Shown: piece after piece, positions 19,228 through 42,765 of the stretch
How the letters are laid out: each line of letters opens with the position of its first letter
How positions within the stretch are numbered: position 1 is the first letter of the stretch
Assembly: GCA_036504535.1 (NCBI GenBank)
Contig: DASXUY010000022.1
Coordinates: 5,650 to 69,649 of the forward strand
Direction of reading: 5' to 3'
Source of the DNA: Capsulimonadaceae bacterium
Lineage (GTDB): Bacteria > Armatimonadota > Armatimonadia > Armatimonadales > Capsulimonadaceae
DNA: 64,000 nucleotides
Position numbers and translations under genes: made by a program
Notes under the pieces: generated by a model
Seen by the model: only the letters and a program-made list of their open reading frames with translations
What the model was told of the DNA's origin: nothing
Database searches by the model: none

Positions 19228-19296
19228 CCGCCGCGAAGCGGCACAAGGATGCAACGTCACGTTGCCGCACCGCGCGTAGCGGCCTGCGGAGCAATC
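19228..19296. repeat. Dispersed ~70-bp structured repeat, copy 1 (also at 39914-39989 and 42688-42765).
   Basis: ccgccgcgaagcggcacaaggatGCAACGtcacGTTGCcgcaccgcgcgtagcggcctgcggagcaatc. The central palindrome is preserved in all three copies through compensatory changes. Confidence 0.6.
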
Positions 19297-19455
19297 TGGA
19301 GTTCGCTATCACTACCGTTACTGCCCAATGCATCCGCTAACTGGCCGATTTCGGGTAAAACAGATTCCTGACTATTTGGCCCGATGTTGTGCCGAGTGTG
19401 GGCGAACAATCTGCCCGCCACTTTGAGAGACAAGCGAAAGGATACGACTTGATCC

Positions 19456-22400
19456 ATGGGCACAGCCACCTTACTACCCAACGTCTTATTGGCGAACGCT
19501 AACGGTTCCACGCCTCCCCCTGCTGACCCGGCGCGCGAGGAGCTTGTCGACTACATCAAGCTGCGCCTCGCCGTCGCCGGATGGGAGTTCGCCGACGACG
19601 ATTACCGCAAGCACACCACACTTCCACGGGAAGTCATCTCGCACCTCAAAGAGCGGATACGCCTGTCATATGGTAAGCGTAGCCCTATTGAGAAGCGCGC
19701 CCAGGCCTTCCTTGACCGCTATCTCGCCGACGTCCCTGACATCCCGCCAGTTCGCCTCCCCGGCCTTGGCCAGACGTACATTCTGGACCGCTCCGGAATG
19801 GCGGAAGAACTGTCCCTCCCCGCCGACGGTGACAACTTTATGTCTGACATCGTCAGCTCCTACCGGCTGACCAATGGCCAGGGCGTTCTCCACAACCCGA
19901 AGAGCGACCGCCGTACCACCGAGGGCGTTTTCCACGTAACCGAAGGCGGCGCACCGGTGCCGAACGACAAGAAGGCAGTGCCCAAAGCCGTCTTCGCGCG
20001 CATGCTCAATGCCGCGCTGACCCCGCCGCCATCCATTCTTGAACTGCCCTTCACGTCCAGTCAATTGCACCCGTTTCGCTCCCTCGTGACGTTGATGCTG
20101 CGACCGATGGTCGTGCCGCAGGTGGACGGCATCACGCCCCAGAAGTCGGCGGAGATCCAGTTTATCGCGCCCGGCAACCTTGTCAGTAACCTCGACTTCA
20201 TCGAGCGCATATTCGGCAACGCAGGCGACCCGCATCTGCCGGAAAACGACGCCGGCTTGGATGTCGAGCATTGGACCGGTCAGACGGGCATGGTCATCCT
20301 AGCGCCGCACCTCATTACGTTGACGAAGGAAGAACTTGGCCTTCCGCACATCGACAACGCCACCGAGAGGCAGAAGCGTGACGGCATGTGCTGGACCGAG
20401 ATTAACGAAATCTATAACGGCGGGAACGCGTTCAAGCTCACCTGTCGCAACGATGAAGGCGTGATCGTCACTATCATTGCCGACAACTACTTTGGCTACT
20501 GCAAGAAAGAAGTCAAAACCCAGATCTCCTACTGCGCCAACCTCCTCGGCGGCGTCGAGGAGGAGCATTCCGGCGGCGCGCTTGTCTTCCCGCGATACGA
20601 TCTCGGCAAGGAATTCACCGTCCCGACACACCTCCCAAAGACCGACCACACATTCGCAAAGGTCGTGGCGATGTTTGGCGACACCATGGATGTGATGCCC
20701 GAAGGTTATGCCGTAGACCGCTCTTACCCTGAGATCGTCTACGTCCCCGAGGATGTCCGCATCGACGTCACCACCCAGACCGTGTCGTGGACAACTGAAT
20801 GCGGTCCCAAATCGCTTCCGCTGGCTCCCGGAAAGCTTTACATTGTCCCGTCTGGCTTCAAAGTCAGTCTCGAATACGAAGCTGAGTCGGCTCAGTGGCG
20901 CCTAATCGGTACACGCGCCGAGGGCACATTCTGCCATAAGCCCAGTACCGTGTCCGGCGGCGGCAAGTCGGAGATCAGCAAACCGATCACCGACGCCATC
21001 ACCCACGCGCCGTTCTTCGTCGCCAACTTCGAAAGCGACATGGACCATGTGCAGCGCCTGCTCGATCACGACTACAGCCACCGGTTCCGCCACGGTCGCA
21101 CCGAAGTGAGCCGCCCCATCCTCAGCCCGCAGCGCTCACTCGGTTCCGTCATCAAGCTGCTGACACCATCCGAGACGCTGTACACCGACGAGTACAACAA
21201 GTGGCTGTTGTCCATCCCGCACTCCATCCGCGAGCTTGTGTTTGCTGTCAAGCGCTATTACCGGCCCGAGATGGGCGATGATTGGCGCTCCGATTTCAGT
21301 GTCAATGTGGTCAATGGCCGCCCCAGCAACACGCTCAAATTCGCCCACGAGCCCCTGATCGCCCGCTACATGCGCGTCGGCTTCGCGCTCGACGGTAGCT
21401 GGCGCATGTTCTCGCTGCGTAACGATTACGCCCCCGCCGAGAAGCTGCAGCGAGAGGACGATATCACTGTCTCAATGGTGATCCCAAACACCAAATTGCC
21501 CGGCCTTAACCCGCGCTATGTTGGCCCGGTGTCATCGAAGCTAGTGTCGCCGCGCAACCCGGAAAGCCGCCTGTTCCAGCGCCCCGACGATGCCGTGCAC
21601 CGCGGCTACGACAAGGCAACCGAAGCGCATTTTGCACGCAAGTCCAACTTCTTCTCCAACTACGAGCCGCTCACCGAAATCGATGCCGCCGCTATTCTAG
21701 CGAAGCCCATCGAGTTTGCCCAGTTCACTGAGCCGATGCGTGACGTTATCCGCAACGCCGCCGCGAACCGCGGCTACTTCGTCTCGTCCGCGCACCCTCG
21801 CATCGTCGACGGCAAGCCGACCAAGAACCCGCGTTACCTCCAGATCCCGTCGGAACTCGACGATAGCCGCCCCGATTATATCGCTCAGATAGGCGCGCGA
21901 CTGCACCGCAACATCCCCGAGAGCGGCGCCCTGCATCGGCCGGTGAATGCTGTTCTACCGGGCCGTCGCCTCAACCCGCCCGACGCCAAAGCTGGAATTC
22001 GATCGTTGGCCTGCTACAACCCGATCCACTACCAGGAGACGCCTGAACTCTTCATGGAGCTAATCAGCAGCCTCACTGGAAAGTCGCCCAGCACCACCGG
22101 AGCGGGGTCCGAGGGTGCGCTCACCAAGGGCCCATTCAACGCCCTCCTGCCCATCATCGACCTCAACGCCGCGTTCGTGTCGCACGTCCTCACCGGCACG
22201 CGCTGCTTCGTCACCGCCGCAGGATACGTCGGCCCCAAGTTCCGTGTGGATCACGACATCAGCCTTCTGATACCCGAGATCTGGTCGCGAATGGACGTTG
22301 AGCAGCGCTCGCCAGCATATCTCATCGAGAACCAGTTCCTCGAAAAGATCGAAGATTTCGAAGCCGACGGCCGCGTCGTACTTGCAAGCCGCCTGGGATA

Positions 22401-22938
22401 CCGCATAACGAACCATTTCGTCCGGACATTCTTCGGCATCGTCTTCGACAATCCGAACGACCTCTTCACCGACGAGATGCTGCGTCCGGAACTGCAGGAC
22501 CCTGAGTCTTTCAACGATGCCATCGACAACATCGTCGGCACCCAGAAGAGCATCGCCGAGCACTACTTCGCTGACGGTGGCATCGAGCTCGCATGCCCGC
22601 CGCTGCGCGTCCTCCTGCATATCATGCGCGACGGCCACTACGAAGGCAAGAGCATCCACGATCCCGAGATCCGCAAGATGTTCTCCGCCAGCGCCGTGCT
22701 CGAAAGCGGCTGGTACCGCGCCCGTCTCGAAGCTCAAAGCGCGGGCGATGTGCGCCTCTGGTCCCGACACGTCGAATATCTCGACGCTGCCCTCGACAAC
22801 GCAAACAAGGCCAGCTGGGAACTCAAGAGCCGCGCCAAAGCTGGCCTCCGCACCGCCAAAGCCATGCTAGAAACGGTCAAGGCAGAAGGCTACACCGAAT
22901 CGCTCATCGGATACATCGGCGCGACCCCGTCGAGTTAG
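19456..22938 (+). CDS. Large (1160 aa) conserved hypothetical protein.
   Basis: Long uninterrupted ORF with coding-like composition. No signal peptide, transmembrane segment or recognisable domain. The only motif is a P-loop-like STVSGGGKSE. Confidence 0.6.
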   Translation: MGTATLLPNVLLANANGSTPPPADPAREELVDYIKLRLAVAGWEFADDDYRKHTTLPREVISHLKERIRLSYGKRSPIEKRAQAFLDRYLADVPDIPPVRLPGLGQTYILDRSGMAEELSLPADGDNFMSDIVSSYRLTNGQGVLHNPKSDRRTTEGVFHVTEGGAPVPNDKKAVPKAVFARMLNAALTPPPSILELPFTSSQLHPFRSLVTLMLRPMVVPQVDGITPQKSAEIQFIAPGNLVSNLDFIERIFGNAGDPHLPENDAGLDVEHWTGQTGMVILAPHLITLTKEELGLPHIDNATERQKRDGMCWTEINEIYNGGNAFKLTCRNDEGVIVTIIADNYFGYCKKEVKTQISYCANLLGGVEEEHSGGALVFPRYDLGKEFTVPTHLPKTDHTFAKVVAMFGDTMDVMPEGYAVDRSYPEIVYVPEDVRIDVTTQTVSWTTECGPKSLPLAPGKLYIVPSGFKVSLEYEAESAQWRLIGTRAEGTFCHKPSTVSGGGKSEISKPITDAITHAPFFVANFESDMDHVQRLLDHDYSHRFRHGRTEVSRPILSPQRSLGSVIKLLTPSETLYTDEYNKWLLSIPHSIRELVFAVKRYYRPEMGDDWRSDFSVNVVNGRPSNTLKFAHEPLIARYMRVGFALDGSWRMFSLRNDYAPAEKLQREDDITVSMVIPNTKLPGLNPRYVGPVSSKLVSPRNPESRLFQRPDDAVHRGYDKATEAHFARKSNFFSNYEPLTEIDAAAILAKPIEFAQFTEPMRDVIRNAAANRGYFVSSAHPRIVDGKPTKNPRYLQIPSELDDSRPDYIAQIGARLHRNIPESGALHRPVNAVLPGRRLNPPDAKAGIRSLACYNPIHYQETPELFMELISSLTGKSPSTTGAGSEGALTKGPFNALLPIIDLNAAFVSHVLTGTRCFVTAAGYVGPKFRVDHDISLLIPEIWSRMDVEQRSPAYLIENQFLEKIEDFEADGRVVLASRLGYRITNHFVRTFFGIVFDNPNDLFTDEMLRPELQDPESFNDAIDNIVGTQKSIAEHYFADGGIELACPPLRVLLHIMRDGHYEGKSIHDPEIRKMFSASAVLESGWYRARLEAQSAGDVRLWSRHVEYLDAALDNANKASWELKSRAKAGLRTAKAMLETVKAEGYTESLIGYIGATPSS

Positions 22939-24327: not shown

Positions 24328-25797
24328 ATGGCAACCGGTACAATGGTTAGAGAATTGTTGGTGACGGCGCAGTCTGGCAAGAAGCCACTGATCGTTCAGC
24401 GGATGAACGAGTGGCACTACCTCGAACGGTCCCTGCACCGCCTCGTCGCCGCGTGGGCGCGACGGTTTCCCGACTGGGAGGACAAACGCGCCGTCTGCCG
24501 TCACGTGTGGGAGCAGGCGGAATGCGTCCGCCGCCTCCGCGAGCGCCTCGTCGAATTCCCCGGCACCAGCACCAACCTCGATGCGCCCGTATCGGCCCGC
24601 CTGGAGCACCTTACGAACACAGTGCTGCTCGCGCCCACCCATCAGGATGCCGTCGACGGCGTCTACCAGATCCTCACCGGTGCGCTGGTCCACGCTTACC
24701 TGCGCTATGTCGAGCACGCGCACCCGGTCCACGATGCGCCAACCGTTGCCATGCTGCAAGAAATCGTCCGCATCAAGGAGCAGCAGCGCCTCTGGCTGCG
24801 CGACTATCGCAGGCGGTACCCGCACACCGTCAACGCTGCCTACCGCGGCGCCATCGAAGCCGCCATCGCGGACTGCGCCGACTTCCGTGAATCGCTTCCC
24901 GTCGACCCTGCCGATCCCGCGCAGCCCGTCGGTGTCCGCACAGGTTTCCGGCTGCCCGCCGCCGCCGCAAGCCCGTTCGGCGGCTTCGTCGGCGCGGCAG
25001 AGATCGAGGACGCCAGCCCCATCGGTGACGCGCCCAAAGCCGTAACACCCGCGCAGCGCCTCGACTTCATGCCATGCATCGAGCGCGACTTCGTAACCAG
25101 CATCGAAGCGCGCCGTCTGTTCTGGATGTACGGCTACATGCTCGAACAAGGCCTGGCAGACGATCAGATGACGTGGATCTGGGCGTCGCATTCGCTGCCG
25201 TGGGAGTTCCAGCAGGACGTTTCCCGTCACCTGTGGGACGAATCCCGCCACGGCGACTCCGGCTACTCGCGCTTCCTCGACTTTGGCTTCGTCCCCGAGC
25301 GCATTGGCTTTGCTAACGACACTGAGCCTTACAAAGCCAACTACGTCGCTGGGGAAGTGCCTACCATGCCGACCCTGACCCCGCGCGAGCTGTACGACCG
25401 CGTCTTCTTCATCGGCATGTGCGCCGAAACCGGTCACTTCGCCGTCAAGCACGAAGCCTACGCCGACTTCAAGGACGGCGGCGACCTCGAATCGGCCGAG
25501 ATGGTTCTGTTCGACATCATCGACGAAACCAGCCACGTCCAGTACGCTCACCACTGGCTTCCAATGCTCGCCGAACGCGCCGACGTCGACCCCGCCGAGT
25601 TCCGCGACAAAGGCCGCACCGAACGTGACCGCTACCAGCAAGTCGCCGACACCCGCCTCGCCGCCCTCCAAGCCACACCTCTAGACACGAGCGCCCCCCA
25701 ATACGTCTACTACCAGCGCCTGCTCCAGATCCTACGCGACAAACAACCCCTCACCAACGCCAACACCTGCCCCCCAAGATCGTTCAAGCCGATGTAG
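24328..25797 (+). CDS. Ferritin-like di-iron carboxylate superfamily protein of unknown function.
   Basis: Two E...ExxH motifs about 100 aa apart (LEQG...WDESRHGD and CAETGH...DETSHVQYAHHW), typical of four-helix-bundle di-iron proteins. A ~230-aa N-terminal domain precedes them. Confidence 0.5.
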   Translation: MATGTMVRELLVTAQSGKKPLIVQRMNEWHYLERSLHRLVAAWARRFPDWEDKRAVCRHVWEQAECVRRLRERLVEFPGTSTNLDAPVSARLEHLTNTVLLAPTHQDAVDGVYQILTGALVHAYLRYVEHAHPVHDAPTVAMLQEIVRIKEQQRLWLRDYRRRYPHTVNAAYRGAIEAAIADCADFRESLPVDPADPAQPVGVRTGFRLPAAAASPFGGFVGAAEIEDASPIGDAPKAVTPAQRLDFMPCIERDFVTSIEARRLFWMYGYMLEQGLADDQMTWIWASHSLPWEFQQDVSRHLWDESRHGDSGYSRFLDFGFVPERIGFANDTEPYKANYVAGEVPTMPTLTPRELYDRVFFIGMCAETGHFAVKHEAYADFKDGGDLESAEMVLFDIIDETSHVQYAHHWLPMLAERADVDPAEFRDKGRTERDRYQQVADTRLAALQATPLDTSAPQYVYYQRLLQILRDKQPLTNANTCPPRSFKPM

Positions 25798-25824
25798 GGG
25801 CAGAGCTTGTCTCTGCCCTCCGGA
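25797..25824. repeat. Hairpin repeat GGGGCAGAGcttgtCTCTGCCC directly at the stop codon of 24328-25797, with a second copy at 26114-26143.
   Basis: The two copies share a 30-bp near-identical sequence, tgtaggggcagagcttgtctc(t/c)gccctccg. A 9-bp GC stem with a 5-nt loop; possibly a terminator or REP. Confidence 0.5.
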
Positions 25825-26030
25825 TTGCACCGACGCGCCACGTTACGGTCCGAATCCCTCGCCCGCCTCGGGAGAGGGTGGGGTGAGGGCAATTCGTGAA
25901 CGCTGCGTCGCCGTGAAATCCTGCCGCGTCTGAACGCCTAGTCCGCAGGCGGACGCAAGCGGCCTGACGCAGAGCACCCCAGCGCGGCTTAATCTCTGCA
26001 CCGACACGCTGGGTTAAGGTCCGAATGCAT

Positions 26031-26257
26031 CTCTGACTCCCCCTCGTCCTTATCTTAGGAGAGGGGGCGGGGGGTGAGGTATTTGCCCAAATTGGGGTGG
26101 CGCGCCGGGCATTTGTAGGGGCAGAGCTTGTCTCCGCCCTCCGACAGCAACGGCAAGCAAGCGGGACATATAGCCACTGTCCGGCCGCTTCTGACTCCCC
26201 TTCTCCTTATCCTAGGAGAAGGGGTCGGGGCTTGAGCTAGTCTTCTGGCCAGTTGAG
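26031..26257. repeat. Family of hairpin repeats (CCCCTTCTCC-ttatccta-GGAGAAGGGG type); two copies here and a third at 50108-50157.
   Basis: 26031-26078 tctgactccccctcgtccttatcttaggagagggggcgggg. 26189-26257 tctgactccccttctccttatcctaggagaaggggtcggggcttgagctagtcttctggccag. 50108-50157 gtccttatcttagggggctgggcttgagcctgtccgctggccag. Confidence 0.55.
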
Positions 26258-26265
26258 GTATTCCC

Positions 26266-27273
26266 CTACTCGAACTCGACCGACTCCGACTTCCCGCTCT
26301 TCGACGACTTCTCAGCCGCCTCGATAATCGCGATAATCCGCCGCGACTGCTCACCAGTCACCTTCAGCGGCGCGCCTTCGGTGAGGTGGGCGTTCAGGTC
26401 CTTATAGTACGTGTTCCACGCCGTCGGCTTGTTCTTCACCTCGCCCGTCAGCGCCATACCGTCCACCTGACGCACCAGCTTGAAGCCGTCCTTCACCGAT
26501 CCGTCTTCGACAATGCCGCCCTTGGTGCCGAGAATGCGCCACTTGGGCTGCCCGATACTGCAGATGGTCGATTGGGTAAGTTCCGCCGCAGCGCCGTTGT
26601 CGAAGCGGACAATGATCTGGCCGTGGTCCTCAATCGTGGCTTCGCTCCAGACGCTCTTCTGCAGGAACCCGGTCACCTGGGTCACCTTATGCGGTGCCAT
26701 GATGTTGAGGATCCAGTCGAGGAAGTGTGCGCCCCAGTCGTACATCAGGCCGCCGCTGATCTCCTTGCTCGAACGCCACCACGTTCCCGGCTTGCTGTAT
26801 CCGCCGCCGCCCGCTTGGATCTGGAAGACATCGCCGATAAAGCCCTTGTCGATGGTCTCCTTAATCGCCAAATAGTCGCCGTCCTCGCGCCGGTTGTGGA
26901 AGATGGACAACACCTTGCCCGCCGCCTTGGCGGCATCGATCATCGCCGTACATTCCGCCACCGTAATCGCCATCGGCTTTTCGACGACCACATGCTTGCC
27001 GGCTTTCGATGCCTTCACCGCAAGGTCCGCGTGCGAGTTGTGCGGCGTGATCACCGTGATCAAGTCGACGTCCTTATCGGCAAGCAGCGCCTCGACCGAC
27101 GAGTACGTCTTGATACCCGGGAAATCGGTGCCCGCGCTCTCGGTGCGAGTAGGGTCGATATCGCAGGCTGCTGCGGCGACCATACCGGCGTCCTGCATAT
27201 AACTAAGGTGGGCTTTGCCCATGTTAAAAGCGCCGCCGTAACCGATGACGGCGCCGCGAATTGGCTGTGACAT
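26266..27273 (-). CDS. Gfo/Idh/MocA-family NAD(P)-dependent oxidoreductase.
   Basis: MSQPIRGAVIGYGGAFNMGKAH...ITPHNSHADLAVKASKAGKHVVVEKP, a Rossmann fold followed by EKP. ATG at 27271-27273 with an AAGGAG ribosome-binding site 8 nt upstream. Confidence 0.85.
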   Translation of the reverse strand: MSQPIRGAVIGYGGAFNMGKAHLSYMQDAGMVAAAACDIDPTRTESAGTDFPGIKTYSSVEALLADKDVDLITVITPHNSHADLAVKASKAGKHVVVEKPMAITVAECTAMIDAAKAAGKVLSIFHNRREDGDYLAIKETIDKGFIGDVFQIQAGGGGYSKPGTWWRSSKEISGGLMYDWGAHFLDWILNIMAPHKVTQVTGFLQKSVWSEATIEDHGQIIVRFDNGAAAELTQSTICSIGQPKWRILGTKGGIVEDGSVKDGFKLVRQVDGMALTGEVKNKPTAWNTYYKDLNAHLTEGAPLKVTGEQSRRIIAIIEAAEKSSKSGKSESVEFE

Positions 27274-33929: not shown

Positions 33930-34342
33930 TGCGATGTTCGAACTGCAATGCCGAGGTATTCAACAATAAGACTGTGTGCCCAAACTGCGGCAATAACGTT
34001 CCGACAGCCACACCAACGCCTTTTACCGACGACCTACCGGCAATTACGAACTCGCAACGCCTGCCAGATCGCGAGGCATATTTTGCGGGGGTGTGGTTAG
34101 CCATCTTCACTGTTATTCTCGCCAGTATCGTAACGATGGCAACAGGAGCGTGGCCGCTGTTCTTTGCTGGTCCGATATCAGCGTTACTGCTCTCCTTTCG
34201 CCAGCGGGCAAGTTCTCCAGATAATGCACGTGGATTGATCATGGGTCTTGTTTATTGCTTTGGCGGCGTCGCGACACTTTACCTGGGGGCACTTGCTTTG
34301 TGTAGAGTCGCCGCACTGTATCTGGTGATGCTCGCGCAATAA
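33926..34342 (+). CDS. Zinc-ribbon membrane protein, array member 1 of 14.
   Basis: MMRCSNCNAEVFNNKTVCPNCGNNV, then transmembrane helices, then ...DNARGLIMG... and a C-terminal LALC. The ATG overlaps the lgt stop (ATGA). Confidence 0.7.
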   Translation: MMRCSNCNAEVFNNKTVCPNCGNNVPTATPTPFTDDLPAITNSQRLPDREAYFAGVWLAIFTVILASIVTMATGAWPLFFAGPISALLLSFRQRASSPDNARGLIMGLVYCFGGVATLYLGALALCRVAALYLVMLAQ

Positions 34343-34365
34343 GGCGTTGCGGGAGTTCGGTGATC

Positions 34366-34926
34366 ATGGTTATCAAATGCCCTAACTGTGCGAGCAACAT
34401 TTCCGAGGATACAATCATCTGTCCGGAATGCGGCTACAAGCCCATGACGGATTTGTCGCTGGAAGTCAGTGGGGAATCACAGGAACCGATTGGTTGCGTG
34501 CAACCTGCCAAATGCCCAAACTGTGCCGCTAGCATACCAGAGGGTGCGATCCTGTGCCCGGAATGCGGCTACGATACCAAGACCATTTGGCCGCCGTCCC
34601 CAAGAGGTCGATTCGCCTCGCCAGCGGCGACAACTGGTGCCGAAAAGCGTGCTCGTGCAGGCGGCGTTGTGGTCTCGGTAGCGGTTCTCGTGCTTTTCGG
34701 CGTCGTTTCGTCACAGCTAGGCTACGGTCCGATTGTCTTTTTGGGCCCTTTAGCGGTGCTGGCGATATCATCATTAACAAGCGAGCACTACCCACAATTC
34801 GCTGTGGGGCTTCGTATCACTCTCAAGTTTGTACGTGGAGCGATAATCATCGTGGTCCTGGGCGCCCTCGGCGCGTTTTCAATATGCGTATGTTTTTGGC
34901 TGTTGGAGGCGCTATTTCATCGATGA
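34366..34926 (+). CDS. Zinc-ribbon membrane protein, array member 2 (duplicated zinc ribbon).
   Basis: MVIKCPNCASNISEDTIICPECGY followed by a second ribbon KCPNCAASIPEGAILCPECGY, then 2-3 transmembrane helices. GGGAG ribosome-binding site. Confidence 0.7.
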   Translation: MVIKCPNCASNISEDTIICPECGYKPMTDLSLEVSGESQEPIGCVQPAKCPNCAASIPEGAILCPECGYDTKTIWPPSPRGRFASPAATTGAEKRARAGGVVVSVAVLVLFGVVSSQLGYGPIVFLGPLAVLAISSLTSEHYPQFAVGLRITLKFVRGAIIIVVLGALGAFSICVCFWLLEALFHR

Positions 34927-35321
34927 CCGCCAAATGCCCACACTGTGCTGCCGACATACCGGGGCGCCCCACGCTGTGTCCGAACTGCGGTCACAAGATC
35001 ACGGCGGCGTGGACCCAGCGTTTAGGGCTTATGCCGCTCAATATGGACGCCGATCTGCGTCCCTTTTTTGCCGGAATTAGGGCGCCCATTTTACTTGTAG
35101 TTCTATTCACCTGGCTCGCGTTCCAGTTCAACGACTGGGAGCTAGGGTTTGGCGGCCCGGCGACAGCGCTCACAGCTGCTGCGGCGTTGTGGTGGAAGCA
35201 CCGTCAACTTTCGCGCGGCCTCGGCATGGGCATCATGTGGATATTGGCGACAATCGGCGTGATATTCCTCGGCGCTCTGGTGATCTGCGGCGTTGAGACG
35301 GCGATTGGGGCGAACAAGTGA
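34923..35321 (+). CDS. Zinc-ribbon membrane protein, array member 3.
   Basis: MTAKCPHCAADIPGRPTLCPNCGH, transmembrane helices, RQLSRGLGMG, C-terminal LVICGV. The ATG overlaps the previous stop (ATGA). Confidence 0.7.
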   Translation: MTAKCPHCAADIPGRPTLCPNCGHKITAAWTQRLGLMPLNMDADLRPFFAGIRAPILLVVLFTWLAFQFNDWELGFGGPATALTAAAALWWKHRQLSRGLGMGIMWILATIGVIFLGALVICGVETAIGANK

Positions 35322-35328
35322 GACGGCA

Positions 35329-35718
35329 ATGACAACCAAATGCCCTAACTGCGCTACTGGCATCTGCGGTGACGAAAAGATGTGCCCGAACTGTGGCAAG
35401 CTCGTGCTGATTCAAGCCGTTGGGTCGTCTGGCACGAGAAGCTCTCTCGGCGCAATCGGCTGCTTTCAAGCCTTTATTTTGGTGTTGATTGCTATGTTGG
35501 CGATTGATCGTATTGCCAACATAGCATGGGAGAGGAAGTCATTTCTCGTGTATGCCGTCGGCTCTCTTGCCGTTTTGGCAGCGATCGTCGCCGCAAAGGC
35601 ACGGTTGCCGCGCTTCGCAAGTAATGTCCTTGTTGTTGTGCTTGTCTTCACCTTGATCGTCGCGATGATGGGCTTGGGAGCATTCGTGGCCTGTTGGGGA
35701 CCGGGGAACGGCTTATGA
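35329..35718 (+). CDS. Zinc-ribbon membrane protein, array member 4.
   Basis: MTTKCPNCATGICGDEKMCPNCGK, transmembrane helices, KARLPRFASN, C-terminal FVACWG. Confidence 0.7.
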   Translation: MTTKCPNCATGICGDEKMCPNCGKLVLIQAVGSSGTRSSLGAIGCFQAFILVLIAMLAIDRIANIAWERKSFLVYAVGSLAVLAAIVAAKARLPRFASNVLVVVLVFTLIVAMMGLGAFVACWGPGNGL

Positions 35719-36116
35719 CCATCAAATGCCCAAACTGCGCTACTAGCATCTCCAATGACGTGGCCCTGTGTCCGGAATGCGGCTGCGAAATCGCGGTGGA
35801 TGCGTCGGCTGTCAAGAACGAGATGGCTACACCATCGGGGAAAAGTGTTCCGCCAATCTGGTACCGCACGCCAGCCGCGATTTACATCTGGATAGGTGGT
35901 TTAGGTATGGTGTTTATAATCGCTGCTCTTCAGCGGACATTGGCGTCATTCTTCTGTGGCCTGACCTTATACTTCGTGGTTGCTACGGTCGCGATCTGGA
36001 AGGCGCCCCGTAGTCCAAAACGGACCATAGACTTGGTCTTGTTACTGTTGTTGATGGCAACTCTGATTTGCCTAAGTGGTTTCTTTACTTGCTGTGCTGT
36101 GATTTCGAAGGACTGA
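35715..36116 (+). CDS. Zinc-ribbon membrane protein, array member 5.
   Basis: MTIKCPNCATSISNDVALCPECGC, three transmembrane helices, KAPRSPKR, C-terminal FFTCCAV. ATGA overlap with the previous gene. Confidence 0.7.
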   Translation: MTIKCPNCATSISNDVALCPECGCEIAVDASAVKNEMATPSGKSVPPIWYRTPAAIYIWIGGLGMVFIIAALQRTLASFFCGLTLYFVVATVAIWKAPRSPKRTIDLVLLLLLMATLICLSGFFTCCAVISKD

Positions 36117-36124
36117 GCGGCTCA

Positions 36125-36532
36125 ATGACAACCAAATGCGCGAACTGTGGCGAGCCGCTCTCTAGCGACGATAAGCTATGCCCGAACTGCGGGGCGGCAC
36201 TGGGCGAGATGTGGCCGCCGCCGCCCTCGTCTCGGGGCGACGAGCTTCCGGGCCCAGCTAGAAGCTTGCCACCGTGGCTTCAGTGCTTGATAGGCGTCTT
36301 TATTGTCTTCGCTCTTTCTACTGGACTGGCGTTGGTAGCGAGAGAAGCTAAGCTGTTCTCCGTTTATGCGGTCGGTGTTGGGCTTCTTCTACTGGTCGCG
36401 ATTATAGCCGTTCGAAACTCACCTGGATTCAAAAAGAACTCAGTGGCCGTAGCCGCTCTCTTCCTCGGTGGGTCGCTGGTCGTATTCTGGAATGGCTTAA
36501 TAACGTGCTACGGTATTTTTCGGCACAGATAA
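36125..36532 (+). CDS. Zinc-ribbon membrane protein, array member 6.
   Basis: MTTKCANCGEPLSSDDKLCPNCGA, transmembrane helices, RNSPGFKKN, C-terminal LITCYG. Confidence 0.7.
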   Translation: MTTKCANCGEPLSSDDKLCPNCGAALGEMWPPPPSSRGDELPGPARSLPPWLQCLIGVFIVFALSTGLALVAREAKLFSVYAVGVGLLLLVAIIAVRNSPGFKKNSVAVAALFLGGSLVVFWNGLITCYGIFRHR

Positions 36533-36537
36533 ACGCT

Positions 36538-36927
36538 ATGACCATCAAATGCCCAAACTGCGCTAGCGCCATTCCCGAGGACACGGCACTGTGTCCGGAA
36601 TGTGGCTACGAGCACGTCGCCGACTGGCCGCACGTTACGATGGGCGAAGCATATGGTCCGCTTGGCTGCCTTCAGACATTCTTGGTTGTGTTCGCAACGT
36701 TGCTCGCGATCGCAGGGGTCGGCTATATCGCGGCGGAGAAGAGCTCGCTCATCGTATATATCATCGGGGCGGCGTGCGTTGTGCTGGCAAGTGCCCTCGC
36801 AACCCGTCGGTTACCGCGAATAATGAAGAACACCCAGGCACTTCTGTTCGTGATCATTGTAATTGGGGTTATGACCTGGTTTGGCGCTTTCGTGACATGT
36901 TCTAGGTCGATGGGGCCCGTATGGTAA
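36538..36927 (+). CDS. Zinc-ribbon membrane protein, array member 7.
   Basis: MTIKCPNCASAIPEDTALCPECGY, transmembrane helices, RRLPRIMKN, C-terminal FVTCSR. Confidence 0.7.
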   Translation: MTIKCPNCASAIPEDTALCPECGYEHVADWPHVTMGEAYGPLGCLQTFLVVFATLLAIAGVGYIAAEKSSLIVYIIGAACVVLASALATRRLPRIMKNTQALLFVIIVIGVMTWFGAFVTCSRSMGPVW

Positions 36928-37322
36928 CCAAATGCCCAAACTGCGCCGCGACGCTTACTGGCGACGAAACCTTGTGCCCGAACTGCGGACACGAGATCGC
37001 TAGCGCATGGCCGCCCCCGCTCGCCGAAGAGCTGCCGGATATGCCCAAGTTCCCGCCGCAACGCGATACGCAGGCGTATAATGCTGGCGGCTTAGCATCA
37101 CTTGGTCTCGTGTTCCTATCGCTTTACCTTGCGTCGGTTACTGGAAAGTGGCTGGTCATCTGTGTGGGCCCAATCATCGCGTTCTTGTGTGCTGCGTACC
37201 AATGGAATAGATATCGCGACCTGGCACGCGGGCTGATCATGGGCGTCGTCATCTTTTACGGAGGCGTCGCGGTACTCTGGCTGGGACTGCTTGCTATTTG
37301 TAGCTGGGGTACATACCGATGA
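36921..37322 (+). CDS. Zinc-ribbon membrane protein, array member 8 (nearly identical to member 9).
   Basis: MVTKCPNCAATLTGDETLCPNCGH...NRYRDLARGLIMG...LAICSW. Overlaps the previous gene by 7 nt (ATGGTAA). Confidence 0.75.
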   Translation: MVTKCPNCAATLTGDETLCPNCGHEIASAWPPPLAEELPDMPKFPPQRDTQAYNAGGLASLGLVFLSLYLASVTGKWLVICVGPIIAFLCAAYQWNRYRDLARGLIMGVVIFYGGVAVLWLGLLAICSWGTYR

Positions 37323-37723
37323 CACCCAACTGCCCAAACTGTACCGCGAAGCTTATCGGCGACCAAACCCTGTGCCCGAACTGCGGACACGAGATCGCTA
37401 GCGCATGGCCGCCCCCGCTTGCCGAAGAGCTGCCGGATATGCCCAAGTTCCCGCCGCAACGCGATACGCAGGCGTATAATGCTGGCGGCTTAGCATCACT
37501 CGGTCTCGTGTTCCTATCGCTTTACCTTGCGTCGGTTTCCGGAAAGTGGCCGGTAATTCTGGTTGGCCCCATCATCTCATTCTTGTGTGCCGCGCACCAA
37601 TGGAATAGATATCGTGATCTCGCACGCGGCCTGATCATGGGCGTCGTCCTCTTTTACGGCGGCGTCGCGGTACTCTGGCTTGGACTCCTTGTTATTTGTA
37701 GTAATATGGCAGGATACCGATGA
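37319..37723 (+). CDS. Zinc-ribbon membrane protein, array member 9 (recent tandem duplicate of member 8).
   Basis: MTPNCPNCTAKLIGDQTLCPNCGH. About 90% identical to member 8 at nucleotide and protein level. ATGA overlap. Confidence 0.75.
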   Translation: MTPNCPNCTAKLIGDQTLCPNCGHEIASAWPPPLAEELPDMPKFPPQRDTQAYNAGGLASLGLVFLSLYLASVSGKWPVILVGPIISFLCAAHQWNRYRDLARGLIMGVVLFYGGVAVLWLGLLVICSNMAGYR

Positions 37724-38136
37724 CACCCACATGCCCAAACTGCTCTGCGACGCTTACCGGTGCCGAGACCCTGTGTCCGGAATGCGGGTTCTCGCTACTG
37801 GGTGTCTGGCCGCCGCCGCCCGACACAGTACCGGCACCAGCGCCGAAGCGCACATGGCGCGAACGGCGTCCGTATATTCTCGGCAACGTGGCCGGCATCG
37901 CGATCATTCTAGGGTCCATATTCCTCACCGGTTTTATCGATGCTTGGTGGCTATTCCTCGTGGGAATTGGACTCTCTGGGATCATCGGTCGGTTAATTCA
38001 ACCTCGCGCACCTGAATTCGGGCGGGGTATGTCCATCAGCCCGCTATACTTTGTCCTCATCGTCGCCGTTCTGATCCTCGGCGCACTCGCCACCTGCTTC
38101 GTGGGCCTGCTGTTTAGCCGCGCTCATTCGCCGTAA
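37720..38136 (+). CDS. Zinc-ribbon membrane protein, array member 10.
   Basis: MTPTCPNCSATLTGAETLCPECGF...RAPEFGRGMSISP...LATCFV. ATGA overlap. Confidence 0.7.
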   Translation: MTPTCPNCSATLTGAETLCPECGFSLLGVWPPPPDTVPAPAPKRTWRERRPYILGNVAGIAIILGSIFLTGFIDAWWLFLVGIGLSGIIGRLIQPRAPEFGRGMSISPLYFVLIVAVLILGALATCFVGLLFSRAHSP

Positions 38137-38152
38137 ATGAAACAGAGTCGCC

Positions 38153-38542
38153 ATGCCCAACGTATGCAAAAACTGTGGAGCCGAGCAAACCGGAACGTCA
38201 ACGGTCTGCCTGAACTGCGGAGTGAGTGTTGCGCCGCTGACGCCGCAAGTCCAGACCTTGATGATAGGCAGGCGTCGCGACCCGTATTTAGGGTTCATAC
38301 TCTCTGTATTGGGCCCGCTTGGCGTGGCGGCGATATGCCTGAGCTTTTGGCCGTCGTATACTATTTTTGCGTGGATCGTATCTATCATCGGGACGCATGG
38401 GATTGGCGATGCCATAAAAGAGAAGTGGCCCCTTTTCGGCGGTGCCCTAAAGCGGGGCATCGAATTACAGTTCACAGTACTGGTCGTACTTGTCCTTGGA
38501 GGCTTGGCCATTTGCGCCGGAGCAGCGCGTCAAGGTGCTTGA
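38153..38542 (+). CDS. Zinc-ribbon membrane protein, array member 11.
   Basis: MPNVCKNCGAEQTGTSTVCLNCGV, then transmembrane helices, C-terminal LAICAG. Confidence 0.65.
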   Translation: MPNVCKNCGAEQTGTSTVCLNCGVSVAPLTPQVQTLMIGRRRDPYLGFILSVLGPLGVAAICLSFWPSYTIFAWIVSIIGTHGIGDAIKEKWPLFGGALKRGIELQFTVLVVLVLGGLAICAGAARQGA

Positions 38543-38599
38543 ACGTCCGAAGCACAATCTGTGTGCTATTCGTTTGGGCGGTAGGGAGCGTAAAGTGCT

Positions 38600-38962
38600 A
38601 TGACCTACATATGCAAAAACTGCGACTCCGAGCTAACCGAAACGTCGAACGTCTGCCCAAACTGCGGCGAGCCCGTCGCGCGGAAGCCGACGTGGCACGA
38701 GCGGCGTTTGTATATTGGCGGCATCATTACGGGACTCGTTATAATAATTGGGACAATATTTATCACGTCTACGCTTACCTCTACGCGGGCATTTATAGTC
38801 CCCGCTGCAATGGCGGCGTTTGTTGGAGTGGCCATTCTAAGCACCTCGTTTCAGTTTCGGTCCCCGGAATTCGGGCGCGGCCTTCGAATCAGCCCTGCGT
38901 ATTTTTTCGTTGTTGTAGCGGTAATGCTTCTTGGTCTATTCGTCGTATGCCTCGCTGAATGA
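38600..38962 (+). CDS. Zinc-ribbon membrane protein, array member 12.
   Basis: MTYICKNCDSELTETSNVCPNCGE...RSPEFGRGLRISP...FVVCLAE. Confidence 0.7.
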   Translation: MTYICKNCDSELTETSNVCPNCGEPVARKPTWHERRLYIGGIITGLVIIIGTIFITSTLTSTRAFIVPAAMAAFVGVAILSTSFQFRSPEFGRGLRISPAYFFVVVAVMLLGLFVVCLAE

Positions 38963-38983
38963 TGAACCGAAACCGATTTACCG

Positions 38984-39415
38984 ATGACATACACCTGCAA
39001 AAACTGTGGAGATGAGCTAACCGAAACATCGATCGTCTGCCCGAACTGCGGCGAGCGTGTCGTCACGCACTGGCCCCCGTTCATCATGCAGGATGACGCG
39101 CCCGAGCCCGAGACCGAGCCCCAGCCAAAGCCGCTCATTCGGCGCGGCGACAAAGCGGTGGGCTTCGCCTTGTCGTGCATCCCAGCGCCGGTTACGATCC
39201 TCGTGGAGCGCCTGCTTCCGAACGTCGGCGCGACGGCAGCGCTTCTTGGCTATGGACTTGTGATTGTTGCAGCGAGCAGTATTCAGTATCGCAGACCAGA
39301 CGTTTTCGCGGGCATGGTGCGCGGACTCAAACTACAGCTACTCGTAGCAGCATTGCTCATGCTGGGGTCAATATATACTTGCTTTACTACCGGCCCTTAT
39401 AGCCAACGCCAATAA
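38984..39415 (+). CDS. Zinc-ribbon membrane protein, array member 13.
   Basis: MTYTCKNCGDELTETSIVCPNCGE...RRPDVFAGMVRGLKLQ...IYTCFT. Confidence 0.7.
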   Translation: MTYTCKNCGDELTETSIVCPNCGERVVTHWPPFIMQDDAPEPETEPQPKPLIRRGDKAVGFALSCIPAPVTILVERLLPNVGATAALLGYGLVIVAASSIQYRRPDVFAGMVRGLKLQLLVAALLMLGSIYTCFTTGPYSQRQ

Positions 39416-39491
39416 TCTTTACGTTTGTTCGAGTGCTACCGGGGTTGGCTAAGGGAGTCGCATACCTTTGCGGCCCGCAAGAACGAAAACA

Positions 39492-39869
39492 ATGAACACT
39501 ACGTGCAAGAATTGCAATAAGCCGATCAGTGACGACGACATCAAATGTCCATCCTGTGGCCATGTGCCCCCCGAGCCGTGCACCAAGGGCCAGTCACCGG
39601 GGATGGCCCTTGGAATGATAGGCGGGATAGGGGCCACACTTGTGTTGGCATTCATGGGTAGCATTTTAATCTATTGTGGCTTGTTCATAGCGGTCCCGGT
39701 TTGGCTTGGTTGTCTTTTTGCACTCGACTCACACGCGGTTAAGGTTTCCGCACGGACGCCAGGGTTTGCGCGAGGGTTGCGGCTAGGAATCCGTCTGCAA
39801 ATTCTCGGATTTATGGTGTTGATTATCGAAACCACCATCAAGCTTCACAACTGGTATGGAGTGCAATGA
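39492..39869 (+). CDS. Zinc-ribbon membrane protein, array member 14.
   Basis: MNTTCKNCNKPISDDDIKCPSCGH...RTPGFARGLRLG. An alternative upstream start exists at 39468. Confidence 0.65.
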   Translation: MNTTCKNCNKPISDDDIKCPSCGHVPPEPCTKGQSPGMALGMIGGIGATLVLAFMGSILIYCGLFIAVPVWLGCLFALDSHAVKVSARTPGFARGLRLGIRLQILGFMVLIIETTIKLHNWYGVQ

Positions 39870-39913
39870 AAATCACCCGATGCTCCCTGCTCGCCAACCC
39901 ATCGCCCCGCCTC

Positions 39914-39989
39914 CTAGCGGCGAAGCCGTTCAAGGGTGCAGCGTCACGCTGCCGCCAGCCGCGTAGGCTACCCCTGCGGCGAGCAGTCC
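39914..39989. repeat. Dispersed ~70-bp structured repeat, copy 2.
   Basis: ctagcggcgaagccgttcaagggtGCAGCGtcacGCTGCcgccagccgcgtaggctacccctgcggcgagcagtcc. Confidence 0.6.
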
Positions 39990-40034
39990 TAAACCGTTAC
40001 CTTACAACCGACACCATACCCTGAACACCAAACC

Positions 40035-41441
40035 ATGACCCAACCCGCCGCGATCACCGATCCCTGGACCGAAGACACCGCCAGCCTGTGCCCGACATGC
40101 CTTGCGCACGTCCCGGCGCGCATTGCGGTCGACGGCGGCGGAGTCTGGATCACGAAGCGCTGCCCCGCGCACGGCGAATCCAGCGCGCTGCTGGCTAGCG
40201 ACGCCACCGAGTACTTGCGCCTGCGCCAGTTTGTCCCGGACCGCAGCGGAGCGAACTGCTGCTGCGGACCCGGCGACTCGTGCACCGGCGCGCCTCCCGT
40301 GTGTGTCCTGCTGCTGGAGATCACGCAAGCCTGTAACCTGCGCTGCCCAACATGCTACGCCGACGCGCACGGGCACGAGTTTATGACCGTCGACGAAGCT
40401 CGGCGGCGACTCGATTCGTTCTTCGTAAAGCAGCCAGTGCTCGATGTGCTCATGATCAGCGGCGGCGAGCCCACCATCCACCCCCAGTTTCGCGAGATCC
40501 TCGACCTCGCGCTGTCGTACCCGATCAACCGTGTGCTCATCAACACCAACGGCCTCCGCCTTGTCCAGAGCGACACTGTGCTCGATGCCATCGCCGCGCA
40601 CCGAAACCGCGTCGAGCTGTTCCTGTCGTTCGCCAGCTTCCGCGCCGACGTCCACGAGCGGCTCTACGGCCGTGACCTGCGAACCGAAAAGACCGCCGCC
40701 GTCGATCGAGCGCGTGACGCCGGACTCTTCACGACCATCGTGCCGACAATCGAACGCGGCGTCAACGACGACGAGATCGGCGACCTTTACCGGTTCGCCC
40801 TGTCCCGCGACAACATCAACGGCATCAACTTCCAGCCCGTCATGAGCGCGGGGCGCTACGATCACGGATACGATCCCGCCGGGCGCATGACCCTCACCGA
40901 CGTGATCGCCGCCCTTGAGTCGCAAACCAACGGCCACCTCATCCGCACCGATTTCGTCGGCCTGCCGTGCTCGCATCCCGACTGCTGCGCACTCACATAC
41001 GGCTTTCTCGACGCTGCCCGCACCCGAATCGCTCCGCTCCCGCGATCGCTCGACGTTGCCCGGTACATGGACCTGTTCACGGACCGCATCAGCTTCTCGG
41101 GTCTCGTCGGCGGGGCGTTGCGACGCGTCTGGAGCGACATGGCGCATATGCGAGCAGCGCAAACCCTGCGCGACCTCGGGACCCTCTTCGCCACCGCTGG
41201 CATACGCGACGTGCTCCCACTTATCGGTCGCCCGGAAGAGTTTGGCAAACGTGTCCTGCGTATCGTCGTCAAGCCGTTTATGGACGCGCACACGTACGAC
41301 CAGCATCGTGTTGAGCAGTGCTGCACGAAGATCATCGACGAGACGGGTCAGCCCGTCTCGTTCTGCGAATACAACGTTCTGCGCCGCGGGGTAACGCTCC
41401 CGGCGCGCCGTGGCTCCGTGCCGTTGTCGGTCGTCGGGTAG
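40035..41441 (+). CDS. Radical SAM enzyme with an N-terminal Cys/His-rich (zinc-ribbon/rubredoxin-like) extension and a C-terminal Cys cluster.
   Basis: CNLRCPTCY (CxxxCxxC) plus the GGEPTIHPQF SAM-binding motif. N-terminal LCPTC...(22)...CPAHG and CCCGPGDSC. C-terminal CSHPDCC and QCCTKIIDETGQPVSFC. Confidence 0.8.
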   Translation: MTQPAAITDPWTEDTASLCPTCLAHVPARIAVDGGGVWITKRCPAHGESSALLASDATEYLRLRQFVPDRSGANCCCGPGDSCTGAPPVCVLLLEITQACNLRCPTCYADAHGHEFMTVDEARRRLDSFFVKQPVLDVLMISGGEPTIHPQFREILDLALSYPINRVLINTNGLRLVQSDTVLDAIAAHRNRVELFLSFASFRADVHERLYGRDLRTEKTAAVDRARDAGLFTTIVPTIERGVNDDEIGDLYRFALSRDNINGINFQPVMSAGRYDHGYDPAGRMTLTDVIAALESQTNGHLIRTDFVGLPCSHPDCCALTYGFLDAARTRIAPLPRSLDVARYMDLFTDRISFSGLVGGALRRVWSDMAHMRAAQTLRDLGTLFATAGIRDVLPLIGRPEEFGKRVLRIVVKPFMDAHTYDQHRVEQCCTKIIDETGQPVSFCEYNVLRRGVTLPARRGSVPLSVVG

Positions 41442-41905: not shown

Positions 41906-42003
41906 AGGGGTAGACTTGATCCTCTCCGCCCCACCTCCCGCCAAGCCGCAGAGCCTCATCAACACCCCAAGCATTGGGGTGCGAGCCAAGCGAGCGGGGT
42001 CCC

Positions 42004-42624
42004 TCACACACACAGCCGCGCCGCTTCTTCGGCTTCGTTCAGCTTGCCGGCGGCGATCAGCGAACGTATCTCGTGCGTCTCCATGATGCGGTTCACCCAC
42101 GCTTTGCGGCGCGCAATCCCCTCCATGCCTTGGATCGTGTTGCGAAGCCGCCCAAACAGCTGTATCCAGAGGTCGTATTCGGGACCGTACTGCTTCTCCA
42201 CCCGGTCGCGCAGCACGGACGCGAACGTTGGGCTTTCACCACCCGTCGAGATTGACAAGAGCAGCTTCCCGCGCGCAACCGTGCTGGGGGTGATGAACGA
42301 GCCCTCAGTCGGCGCATCGGCGCGGCAGACAAGCGCGCCCGCAGCCTCGGCGGCCCTGGCAACAGCCTCGTTCACCGTCTGCGAGTTGGTCGCCGCGTGC
42401 ACCAGAAACGCGCCCGCGACATCGCTCTCAGCAAACTCGCGGCGTATAATCTCGCATGCCCGCGAACGCGCCAGGTCCTCGATCTGCGCCGTGACACTGG
42501 GAGCAACAACACGCACCGTTGCTCCCTGGCCGTGCAATGACTCCACACGCCTCGTCGCTACCGATCCGCCGCCGACCACCACCACGAGCCGACCGGTCAA
42601 ATTCAATATCACTGGGTATGGCAT
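42004..42624 (-). CDS. sirC: Precorrin-2 dehydrogenase / sirohydrochlorin ferrochelatase (SirC/CysG N-terminal domain type).
   Basis: MPYPVILNLTGRLVVVVGGGSVATRRVESLHGQGATVRVVAP Rossmann motif typical of the siroheme synthase N-terminal domain. About 200 aa. Confidence 0.75.
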   Translation of the reverse strand: MPYPVILNLTGRLVVVVGGGSVATRRVESLHGQGATVRVVAPSVTAQIEDLARSRACEIIRREFAESDVAGAFLVHAATNSQTVNEAVARAAEAAGALVCRADAPTEGSFITPSTVARGKLLLSISTGGESPTFASVLRDRVEKQYGPEYDLWIQLFGRLRNTIQGMEGIARRKAWVNRIMETHEIRSLIAAGKLNEAEEAARLCV

Positions 42625-42687
42625 ATCTTTATTATAAGCTTCTTGCTCTTACAATCAGCACTAAAACGCTAATAGGGTATCGCAACA

Positions 42688-42765
42688 CTCGCGGCGAAGC
42701 CGCATAACGGTCCAGCGGACTCGCTGGCTCCCGCCGAGTAGGCGGCCCCAGCGGCGAGCGTTCCT
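42688..42765. repeat. Dispersed ~70-bp structured repeat, copy 3.
   Basis: ctcgcggcgaagccgcataacggtCCAGCGgactCGCTGGctcccgccgagtaggcggccccagcggcgagcgttcc. Confidence 0.6.

Follow-up and report, generated by a model that had tools for sequence, protein, structure and literature searches.

What kind of element recurs three times in a 64,000-nucleotide stretch of a Capsulimonadaceae (Armatimonadota) genome, hereafter the window, with a central hairpin whose two arms change together? The original prediction read the paired substitutions as a sign of selection on secondary structure, as in a small RNA, a REP-type element or a protein-binding hairpin. Of these candidates, the evidence set out below tends to favour an interspersed element of the REP type and to disfavour a protein-binding site on duplex DNA, with an RNA as a possibility.

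Copies of the repeat and their surroundings

The three predicted copies are present as full, three-hairpin copies at 19224..19300 (c1), 39911..39992 (c2) and 42685..42767 (c3), all on the + strand. A repeat search of the window places them in a single family. BLASTN within 185 kb of sequence from the organism aligns c2 with c3 at 77% identity over 79 nt (E=2.7e-11) and c1 with c2 at 78% over 50 nt (E=7e-6), bearing out the reported similarity; overall identity among copies is approximately 67–78%. A covariance model run over the whole window with filters off recovers exactly these three as full copies, at 87–101 bits. The next best match scores 15 bits at 47563–47585 and belongs to a minus-strand partial copy (p4, 47563..47595), therefore the common orientation originally described holds for the three full copies and does not extend to the partial one.

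Copy c1 lies in a divergent intergenic region between a galactose-binding/GH39-like gene (17013–19103, -) and a PPi-type PEPCK gene (19456–22938, +). As predicted, c2 separates the last zinc-ribbon ORF of a tandem array (stop at 39869, +) from a radical-SAM gene (start at 40035, +). Copy c3 is located between the stop of pntB (42854, -), which has its own hairpin and T-run at 42791–42827, and the start of a sirohaem-synthase-like (cysG-like) gene (42624, -), and is antisense to both. All three copies are intergenic, as reported. A 66-aa ORF called by JGI across c1 has no Pfam hit and is taken here as a spurious call.

Searching further sequence of the same organism with the covariance model, as had been proposed, identified a fourth full copy (c5) on another contig (L087 7465–7543; 45 bits, E=4.5e-10). 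It is located downstream of genes, next to a fucosidase gene, and is antisense to its flanking genes. The four full copies thus adjoin unrelated genes (PEPCK, radical SAM, pntB/cysG-like and fucosidase) and are found upstream of, between and downstream of genes in both orientations. They are homologous and dispersed in unrelated intergenic contexts. The genome is 55–63% GC and short GC-rich hairpins are common, so that a chance likeness of intergenic sequences, or the remnant of a segmental duplication, has to be weighed. This is refuted by BLASTN E-values down to 3e-11, covariance scores some 70 bits over background, a copy on a separate contig and the lack of any relationship between the copies in the sequence outside the ~95-nt unit. 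A weak covariance match left of the window (L082 16348–16423, 13 bits), antisense over the first coding bases of an Nramp gene, was judged to be chance.

Four full copies in approximately 185 kb, scaled to a genome of 5–7.6 Mb, would correspond to ~100–170 copies; both this number and the mobility of the family are extrapolations from these four. No presence/absence polymorphism or further sign of insertion, terminal inverted repeats or target duplication were seen at the four copies. Likewise, the features of a MITE are absent: the two ends, ATCGC... and ...TCCTA, lack complementarity, pairing of the outer parts varies between copies, and the aligned flanks have no consistent direct repeat. 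The syntenic pnt loci of two relatives (P0002 and P0003, with 83% and 81% PntB identity) do not contain a copy. Blastn against the PLSDB plasmids gave no matches. A strict exact pattern produced only chance hits in 185,579 species-representative reference genomes (52 hits), JGI metagenome contigs (20) and IMG/VR viral contigs (1); all of these are single and lack the central hairpin, and most resemble GC-rich coding sequence. Because these collections exclude the source contig and copies that have diverged would escape so strict a pattern, the scans argue only weakly for the absence of the family elsewhere.

Pairing and covariation in the three hairpins

The unit, approximately 80–95 nt long, is made up of three hairpins (H1, H2 and H3), linkers rich in purines (AAGGGT ahead of H2) and a single-stranded conserved tail, GCGGCGAGC. 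H1 has 5 bp and a GAA loop (GCSGC-GAA-GCSGC), H2 has 6 bp and a loop of TCA (c1 and c2) or GACT (c3), and H3 has 4 bp and a loop of GCGTA or GAGTA. In c1 these are at 19230–19242 (GCCGC-GAA-GCGGC), 19251–19265 (GCAACG-TCA-CGTTGC) and 19270–19282 (CCGC-GCGTA-GCGG), followed by a shortened 3' tail, GCGG---AGC. The hairpins of c2 are at 39917–39929 (with one G-T pair), 39938–39952 (GCAGCG-TCA-CGCTGC) and 39957–39969 (AGCC-GCGTA-GGCT), with the tail at 39976–39984. Those of c3 are at 42691–42703, 42712–42727 (CCAGCG-GACT-CGCTGG) and 42732–42744 (CGCC-GAGTA-GGCG), with the tail at 42751–42759.

The compensatory changes reported for the central hairpin are real, with two of the six H2 pairs changed on both sides; the boundaries first given for it were slightly off, the stems being 6 bp and the loops TCA or GACT. 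The observation is also stronger than first reported, since H1 and H3, which the original prediction did not mention, covary as well. Over the three hairpins of c1 to c3, standard pairs occupy 45 of 45 cells, and 6 of the 15 base pairs are changed on both sides with none broken. This combination of pairing and covariation was reached by 1 of 500 shuffles, and slid registers pair at 20–53%. RNAalifold predicts the identical three hairpins, and the minimum-energy fold of c1 with DNA parameters reproduces H1–H3. Copy c5 was not used to define the structure, and wherever it has letters on both sides of a pair, that pair is intact. Pair types not seen in c1–c3 appear in its H3 (GUCC/GGAC) and H2 (CCAACG/CGTTGG). 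With c5 included, 58 of 58 cells are paired and the observed values were reached by none of 500 shuffles. The case for selection on secondary structure, originally made from one hairpin, therefore extends to three, and a further copy strengthened the covariation rather than dissolving it.

All three stems stay complementary although their sequence diverges as fast as that of the linkers: column identity is 67% in the stems, 63% in the unpaired linkers and 77% in the loops. Conservation is highest in the loops and at the base immediately 5' of H2. The folding z-scores of the whole element are unexceptional, at -0.6 to -1.9 with RNA parameters and -0.8 to -2.6 with DNA parameters. Three additional structures were considered and rejected. 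A fourth mini-hairpin in the tail (CTGC-GGCGA-GCAG) has 4 bp in c2 and 2–3 bp in the other copies, with RNAalifold keeping 2 bp; a pseudoknot between AAGGG and CCCCU suits c1 and c2 but, when checked by eye, not c3; and the single long REPIN-like hairpin of the c3 minimum-energy fold has outer helices only 56–71% paired over the four copies, with covariation confined to H2.

In three copies (c1, c2 and c5) H2 forms a perfect 7+1+7 palindrome, and c1 and c3 are located in promoter-proximal intergenic DNA. Both features would suit clustered operator palindromes that dimeric regulators recognise in duplex DNA. The half-sites, however, change symmetrically (G-C to C-G, A-T to G-C), which a single regulator reading the bases would neither tolerate nor require. 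A fixed order of three different palindromes with a conserved asymmetric tail is atypical of operators, and c2 and c5 are away from promoters. Operators are for these reasons a very improbable explanation.

The partial copy, core hairpins and the case for an RNA

The partial copy p4 has the structure CTGCGGCGAG-ACAGGGCT-CCAGCG-TCA-CGCTGG, a tail-like motif and an H2 core without H1 or H3, and stops ~17 nt short of the ATG that opens a 74-aa ORF (47321–47545, -), which has no Pfam hit. Hairpins of the H2 type are also found alone. One (14940..14954, +; CTAGGC-TCA-GCCTGG) is 6 nt past the stop of a DUF1559 gene (14960–15802, -). Another (47299..47313, +; GGGT-CCAGGC-TCA-GCTTGG-TT) is 8 nt past the stop of the 74-aa ORF, such that it and p4 bracket this ORF in inverted orientation. 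A third (59125..59139, +; TGGT-CCAAGC-TCA-GCCTGG-TTA), with one A.C mismatch, directly abuts the ybeY stop codon (gene 59140–59634, -). The H2 core is over-represented in this organism: of 57 half-site matches in 185 kb, 7 form perfect hairpins, versus 0 of 120 in 524 kb of DNA from elsewhere. Imperfect pairs comprise three G.T on the strand with the TCA loop and two on the opposite strand, so that no single strand is favoured.

Perfect pairing at such divergence would also fit a functional RNA. The copies could belong to a structured non-coding RNA family, either as cis-acting leader or intercistronic elements or as small RNA genes, with their helices under selection. Complete pairing, two-sided changes in 6 of 15 pairs and loop conservation are what such a family would show. 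In addition, c1, c2 and p4 each precede a start codon on the sense strand, by ~160, 43 and 17 nt respectively, and the full copies contain a single wobble pair, which is in H1 of c2 and reads G-U on the + strand. Against this, c3 and c5 lie downstream of genes and run antisense to the neighbour on either side, and the flanking genes have no function in common. No promoter common to the copies was found by scanning and by eye at c1–c3. TACAAT boxes are present upstream of c1 (19125–19130, also found by the scan) and c3 (42650–42655, by eye) at differing distances, and c2 has none. A terminator scan found no intrinsic terminator at the three window copies, where no hairpin is followed by a T-run on either strand. 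The whole window has no match in Rfam 15 at the gathering score, and c2 and c3 have none even at E up to 10; ARAGORN found no tRNA or tmRNA.

The hairpins themselves also count against an RNA. In the related core hairpins, A.C mismatches are as frequent as G.U, on either strand. Loops of 3 nt and G...A-closed loops of 5 nt, such as those seen here, occur more often in palindromic DNA than in the hairpins of functional RNAs, and the folding z-scores are weak. An RNA family is thus an unlikely explanation, though one to be kept in mind. Its more specific form, an undescribed Armatimonadota structured RNA with three covarying helices, is likewise doubtful; this would be either a small RNA present in several copies or an element that governs processing or stability in cis and is recognised by a nuclease or RNA-binding protein of its own. 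Its minimal form would be the H2-type hairpins after stop codons.

A probable interspersed repeat family and its known counterparts

On balance, we favour a family of short repeats, lineage-specific and interspersed between the genes of this Capsulimonadaceae genome, of the broad REP/BOX/bcr kind. Such an element would work or spread as a folded single strand, either as single-stranded DNA during replication or transposition or as co-transcribed RNA. Its recogniser would read the shape of the hairpins and their loops rather than the sequence of the stems. New copies may arise by non-autonomous transposition or by recombination, and the stems may be kept perfect by selection on foldability or by arm-to-arm correction in a hairpin intermediate. 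The shorter module, the H2-type hairpin alone, would have spread separately, often directly after stop codons. REPs are known to protect mRNA 3' ends, and the H2-type hairpins in this location could shield them in the same way.

The Armatimonadota have barely been studied, and no description of interspersed repeats or regulatory RNAs of this phylum was found in the literature searched. Covariation in three helices is unusually clean here for only four copies. Repeats of this kind break assemblies, one Logan contig beginning inside c1, and can draw spurious gene calls such as the ORF across that copy. If the family is ordinary REP-like DNA, its wider significance is small.

The repeats share several properties with the REP/REPIN and RayT systems of Pseudomonas and Enterobacteria, being short, GC-rich, intergenic and species-specific (PMC3116915, PMC3337134). 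In both, hairpins are kept while sequence outside the recognised parts drifts, and action as a folded single strand is presumed (PMC3116915, PMC3337134). The organism also encodes RayT-like Y1 transposases, two of which were inspected (L087 14135–14539 and L088 10001–10405). GTAG is present in the H3 loop of c1–c3. These similarities would suit a canonical REP/REPIN population mobilised by RayT. However, GTAG is replaced by GGAG in c5, and both RayT genes are flanked not by the three-hairpin element but by a different REP, CCGGGnCTGAAnnCCCGG...CTGACG. This flanking repeat, CCGGGTCTGAACGCCCGG...AGCCCGCTCCTGCGGG, has inverted arms of 68 nt that are 87% complementary. RayT was on this evidence rejected as the mobiliser of the three-hairpin element for the two genes inspected. 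A REPIN is an inverted doublet forming one long hairpin, whereas here there are three separate small hairpins in fixed order without an inverted REP doublet, and the long hairpin of c3 is not conserved. REPIN systems run to tens to hundreds of closely alike copies per genome. Copy identity in active REPIN populations is 94–98% (PMC3337134), far above the 67–78% found here. Taken together, a canonical RayT-mobilised population is improbable. The genome is repeat-rich, with further structured intergenic repeats besides the three-hairpin element.

The PATEs, non-autonomous elements derived from IS200/IS605, have neither terminal inverted repeats nor target duplications. A Y1 transposase recognises their subterminal hairpins on one strand of single-stranded DNA, and they insert strand-specifically beside a fixed tetra- or pentanucleotide. 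The three-hairpin element resembles them in lacking both terminal inverted repeats and target duplications and in carrying a similar motif, directly oriented, at its 5' (GCGGCGAAGC) and 3' (GCGGCGAGC) ends. It differs in that there is no cognate TnpA beside any copy, and no cleavage tetranucleotide is inferable from four copies.

The pneumococcal BOX, the enterobacterial ERIC/IRU and the bcr1–bcr18 repeats of the Bacillus cereus group are intergenic units of 60–150 nt made up of several stem-loops. They are found in both orientations beside unrelated genes. Some are reported to show compensatory base changes, and for most of them no function is known. The repeats described here have no sequence similarity to these and come from a different phylum, the Armatimonadota; they are alike in being modular multi-hairpin intergenic units.

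Copies and structure of the repeat

The original prediction placed a dispersed repeat at three positions, and these are correct. The copies c1 (19224–19300), c2 (39911–39992) and c3 (42685–42767), all on the + strand, cluster as one family (D12) in a repeat search of the window. Aligned by BLASTN within some 185 kb of the organism's DNA, c2 and c3 are 77% identical over 79 nt (E=2.7e-11) and c1 and c2 78% identical over 50 nt (E=7e-6). A covariance model made from these copies (R1), run with filters off across the entire window, finds c1, c2 and c3 alone at 87–101 bits, the next best match scoring 15 bits. Recovery of exactly these copies, far ahead of any other match, shows that the repeat is real and that the window holds three full copies of it.

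Contig Ga0376481_000111 of JGI metagenome 3300035523, 220.7 kb long, includes the window, and its proteins are labelled 'MAG TPA: Capsulimonadaceae bacterium', phylum Armatimonadota, by NCBI. Loci of DUF1559 pilin-like paralogues from the same MAG, together with extension of the window at both ends, provided about 164 kb of same-organism DNA, or about 185 kb once a second RayT locus (L088) was added. In this DNA R1 found one more full copy, c5, on the minus strand of locus L087 (7465–7543; 45 bits, E=4.5e-10). Scans with an exact pattern, covering 185,579 reference genomes as well as JGI metagenome and viral contigs, collections that do not contain the source contig, gave isolated chance matches only, without the central hairpin and mostly resembling GC-rich coding sequence. 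The repeat has no match in Rfam even at E up to 10, ARAGORN gives no call, PLSDB plasmids hold nothing similar, and the syntenic pnt loci of relatives (PntB identity 81–83%) are without a copy.

In alignment the unit is ~80–95 nt long, with a weakly conserved ATCGC at one end and ...TCCTA at the other. In between are three short hairpins. H1 has a 5 bp stem and a GAA loop (GCSGC-GAA-GCSGC in c1, c2 and c3). H2, the central palindrome first noticed, follows an AAGGGT-like linker and has a 6 bp stem (GCAACG, GCAGCG and CCAGCG in c1, c2 and c3, with exact complements) and a TCA or GACT loop. H3 has a 4 bp stem (CCGC/GCGG, AGCC/GGCT and CGCC/GGCG, in the same order) and a GCGTA or GAGTA loop. In the 3' tail, GCGGCGAGC is a direct echo of the H1 5' arm and loop.

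Among c1–c3, standard pairs are present in 45 of 45 pair cells, with both sides changed in 6 of the 15 pairs. This level of pairing and covariation is reached by 1 of 500 column shuffles, and sliding the partners by 1–3 columns reduces pairing to 20–53%. The paired substitutions originally described for the central palindrome are therefore real, and they span three helices rather than one. The search for more copies by covariance model, also proposed originally, bears this out through c5, which had no part in defining the structure and pairs at every position with letters on both sides (H1 shortened to CGC-TAA-GCG, H2 CCAACG-TCA-CGTTGG, H3 GUCC-GCGGA-GGAC). With c5 included, all 58 cells of the four copies pair, 11 of them with double changes, and neither the pairing nor the covariation score is matched in any of 500 shuffles. 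RNAalifold, on the model-fitted four-copy alignment, returns the same three hairpins, and they also appear in the DNA-parameter minimum-energy fold of c1. Pairwise identity is 67% in stem columns, 63% in unpaired columns and highest, at 77%, in the loops. Stems as variable as unpaired columns, with the loops most conserved, are the sequence signature of a repeat that would be constrained in shape and recognised at its loops.

Solitary H2-type hairpins and other repeats

When the 5' half of H2 and its TCA loop serve as the search pattern, with the 3' arm left unconstrained, the organism's 185 kb yields 57 matches, of which seven have a fully complementary 3' arm, one has 5/6 pairs and the rest have at most 4. 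In the other DNA fetched (524 kb, two relatives included) none of 120 such half-sites is fully paired. A T lies directly 5' of the stem in 8 of 8 paired cases, usually within GGGT or GGAT. Apart from those in the full copies, the H2-type hairpins include one in the partial copy p4 (47563–47595, − strand), with upstream CTGCGGCGAG, and one at L085 8450, with an ACA loop, that comes from the covariance model rather than the H2-core scan. The 15-nt hairpins at 14940–14954, 47299–47313 and 59125–59139 of the window, L087 6394–6408 and L082 16324–16338 share the form (G)GGT-CCAGGC-TCA-GCCTGG-TT, which is absent from the 517–524 kb of other DNA examined. Four of these five sites are 0–8 nt from a stop codon with no T-run after them, the gene's sense carrying the TGA-loop strand (TAA-CCAGGC-TGA-GCCTGG-ACC); the fifth, at L082 16324, is 16 nt upstream of an Nramp start. 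The presence of H2-type hairpins beyond the full copies, several abutting stop codons, shows that the H2 module occurs on its own.

Two of the stop-codon hairpins are adjoined by a 74-nt dispersed repeat (14842–14915 and 47224–47297, 74% identity, ending ...GACTTCCTAGGCGCGGAA[A/T]GGG), which may be a second composite element sharing an H2-type module. A 470-nt intergenic mosaic of structured repeats at 25790–26270 contains a pair of GTAG-plus-hairpin units that match at 97% identity (TGTAGGGGCAGAGCTTGTCTCTGCCCTCCG, at 25793 and 26114), a pair of palindromes (CCCCTCGTCCTTATCTTAGGAGAGGGG, at 26040 and 26197), a further 35-nt direct repeat and a degenerate RayT-associated REP. Among small ORFs without Pfam hits (47.3–50.8 kb) there is a duplicated segment of ~110 nt (46741–46854 and 49931–50043, 82–83% identity).

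Genomic context and the nature of the element

Copy c1, in a divergent region, has a galactose-binding/GH39-like gene on one side and a PPi-type PEPCK gene on the other. Copy c2 follows the last ORF of a tandem zinc-ribbon array and precedes a radical-SAM gene, on the strand of both. Copy c3 is 3' of the pntB terminator and ahead of a sirohaem-synthase-like gene, and c5 separates a hypothetical gene from a fucosidase gene; each is antisense to both neighbours. No function links the genes adjoining the four copies, which differ in their placement with respect to genes and in their orientation to transcription.

Across c1, JGI calls a 66-aa ORF without a Pfam hit (19257–19457, − strand; L081), which is probably spurious. 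The Logan contig SRR11794808_7302 begins inside c1, which suggests that assembly breaks at the repeat. In the array at 33900–39870 (+) some 14 paralogous ORFs stand in tandem, each roughly 130–140 aa long and starting with a CxxC...CPxCG zinc ribbon (repeat families D1/D3/D4/D6; Pfam Zn_ribbon_3/DZR). The radical-SAM gene directly after it (40035–41441) has an N-terminal Zn_ribbon_HMPTM domain, and the enzyme could have its substrates or partners in the array, as an expanded family.

Perfect covariation would also be expected of a structured non-coding RNA family; c1, c2 and p4 are sense-upstream of start codons, and the full copies have a single wobble pair, G-U on the + strand. Such an RNA is the less likely reading. 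Two full copies run antisense to every neighbouring gene, no promoter-like or terminator-like signal is common to the copies, and whole-element folding z-scores are unremarkable. Imperfect pairs across all the family's hairpins are G.T three times on one strand and twice on the other, and all loops class as triloops or G...A-closed pentaloops. Loops of these kinds are more typical of DNA palindromes, and the d(GCGAAGC) minihairpin, which is very stable, has C(GAA)G as its loop. A double-stranded operator is disfavoured because the half-sites vary symmetrically. The most likely explanation, favoured by a little over even chances, is that the three hairpins make up an interspersed, REP-like element specific to the lineage. 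A folded single strand would be the form in which it is maintained and has probably spread, and its loops and flanks are the putative recognition features.

Comparison with REP/RayT systems

Two RayT-like loci were found, at L087 14075–14789 and L088 10001–10480 (contig Ga0376481_000259, same organism). The first encodes a 134-aa Y1 transposase, named RayT by JGI and below the IS200 cut-off in NCBIfam. Inverted repeats of 68 nt, 87% complementary, lie on both sides of it, as is typical of RayT genes (PMC3337134). These flanks are a repeat other than the three-hairpin element: CCGGGTCTGAACGCCCGG...CTGACG...AGCCCGCTCCTGCGGG. The second paralogue (134 aa, 64% identical) has the same kind of REP downstream, with no three-hairpin element within 10 kb. 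The REP of both genes has the form CCGGGnCTGAAnnCCCGG-yCTGACG...CACCC and recurs elsewhere, with two copies ~4.1 kb to the left of where the window starts, one at L087 2142 and a degenerate one at 25924 in the window. The two RayT genes and their own REP look like a canonical REP/RayT system in Armatimonadota.

The three-hairpin element was also considered as an inverted REP doublet and rejected as such, the long hairpin that c3 can form not being conserved and its outer helices being only 56–71% paired. With a different REP at the RayT genes and no inverted doublet, the membership tests run place the element outside the REPIN/RayT system, and its mobilising or binding factor is neither of the two RayTs seen. 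Its behaviour is however REP-type in the broad sense, and the repeat is a new family of a kind already known.
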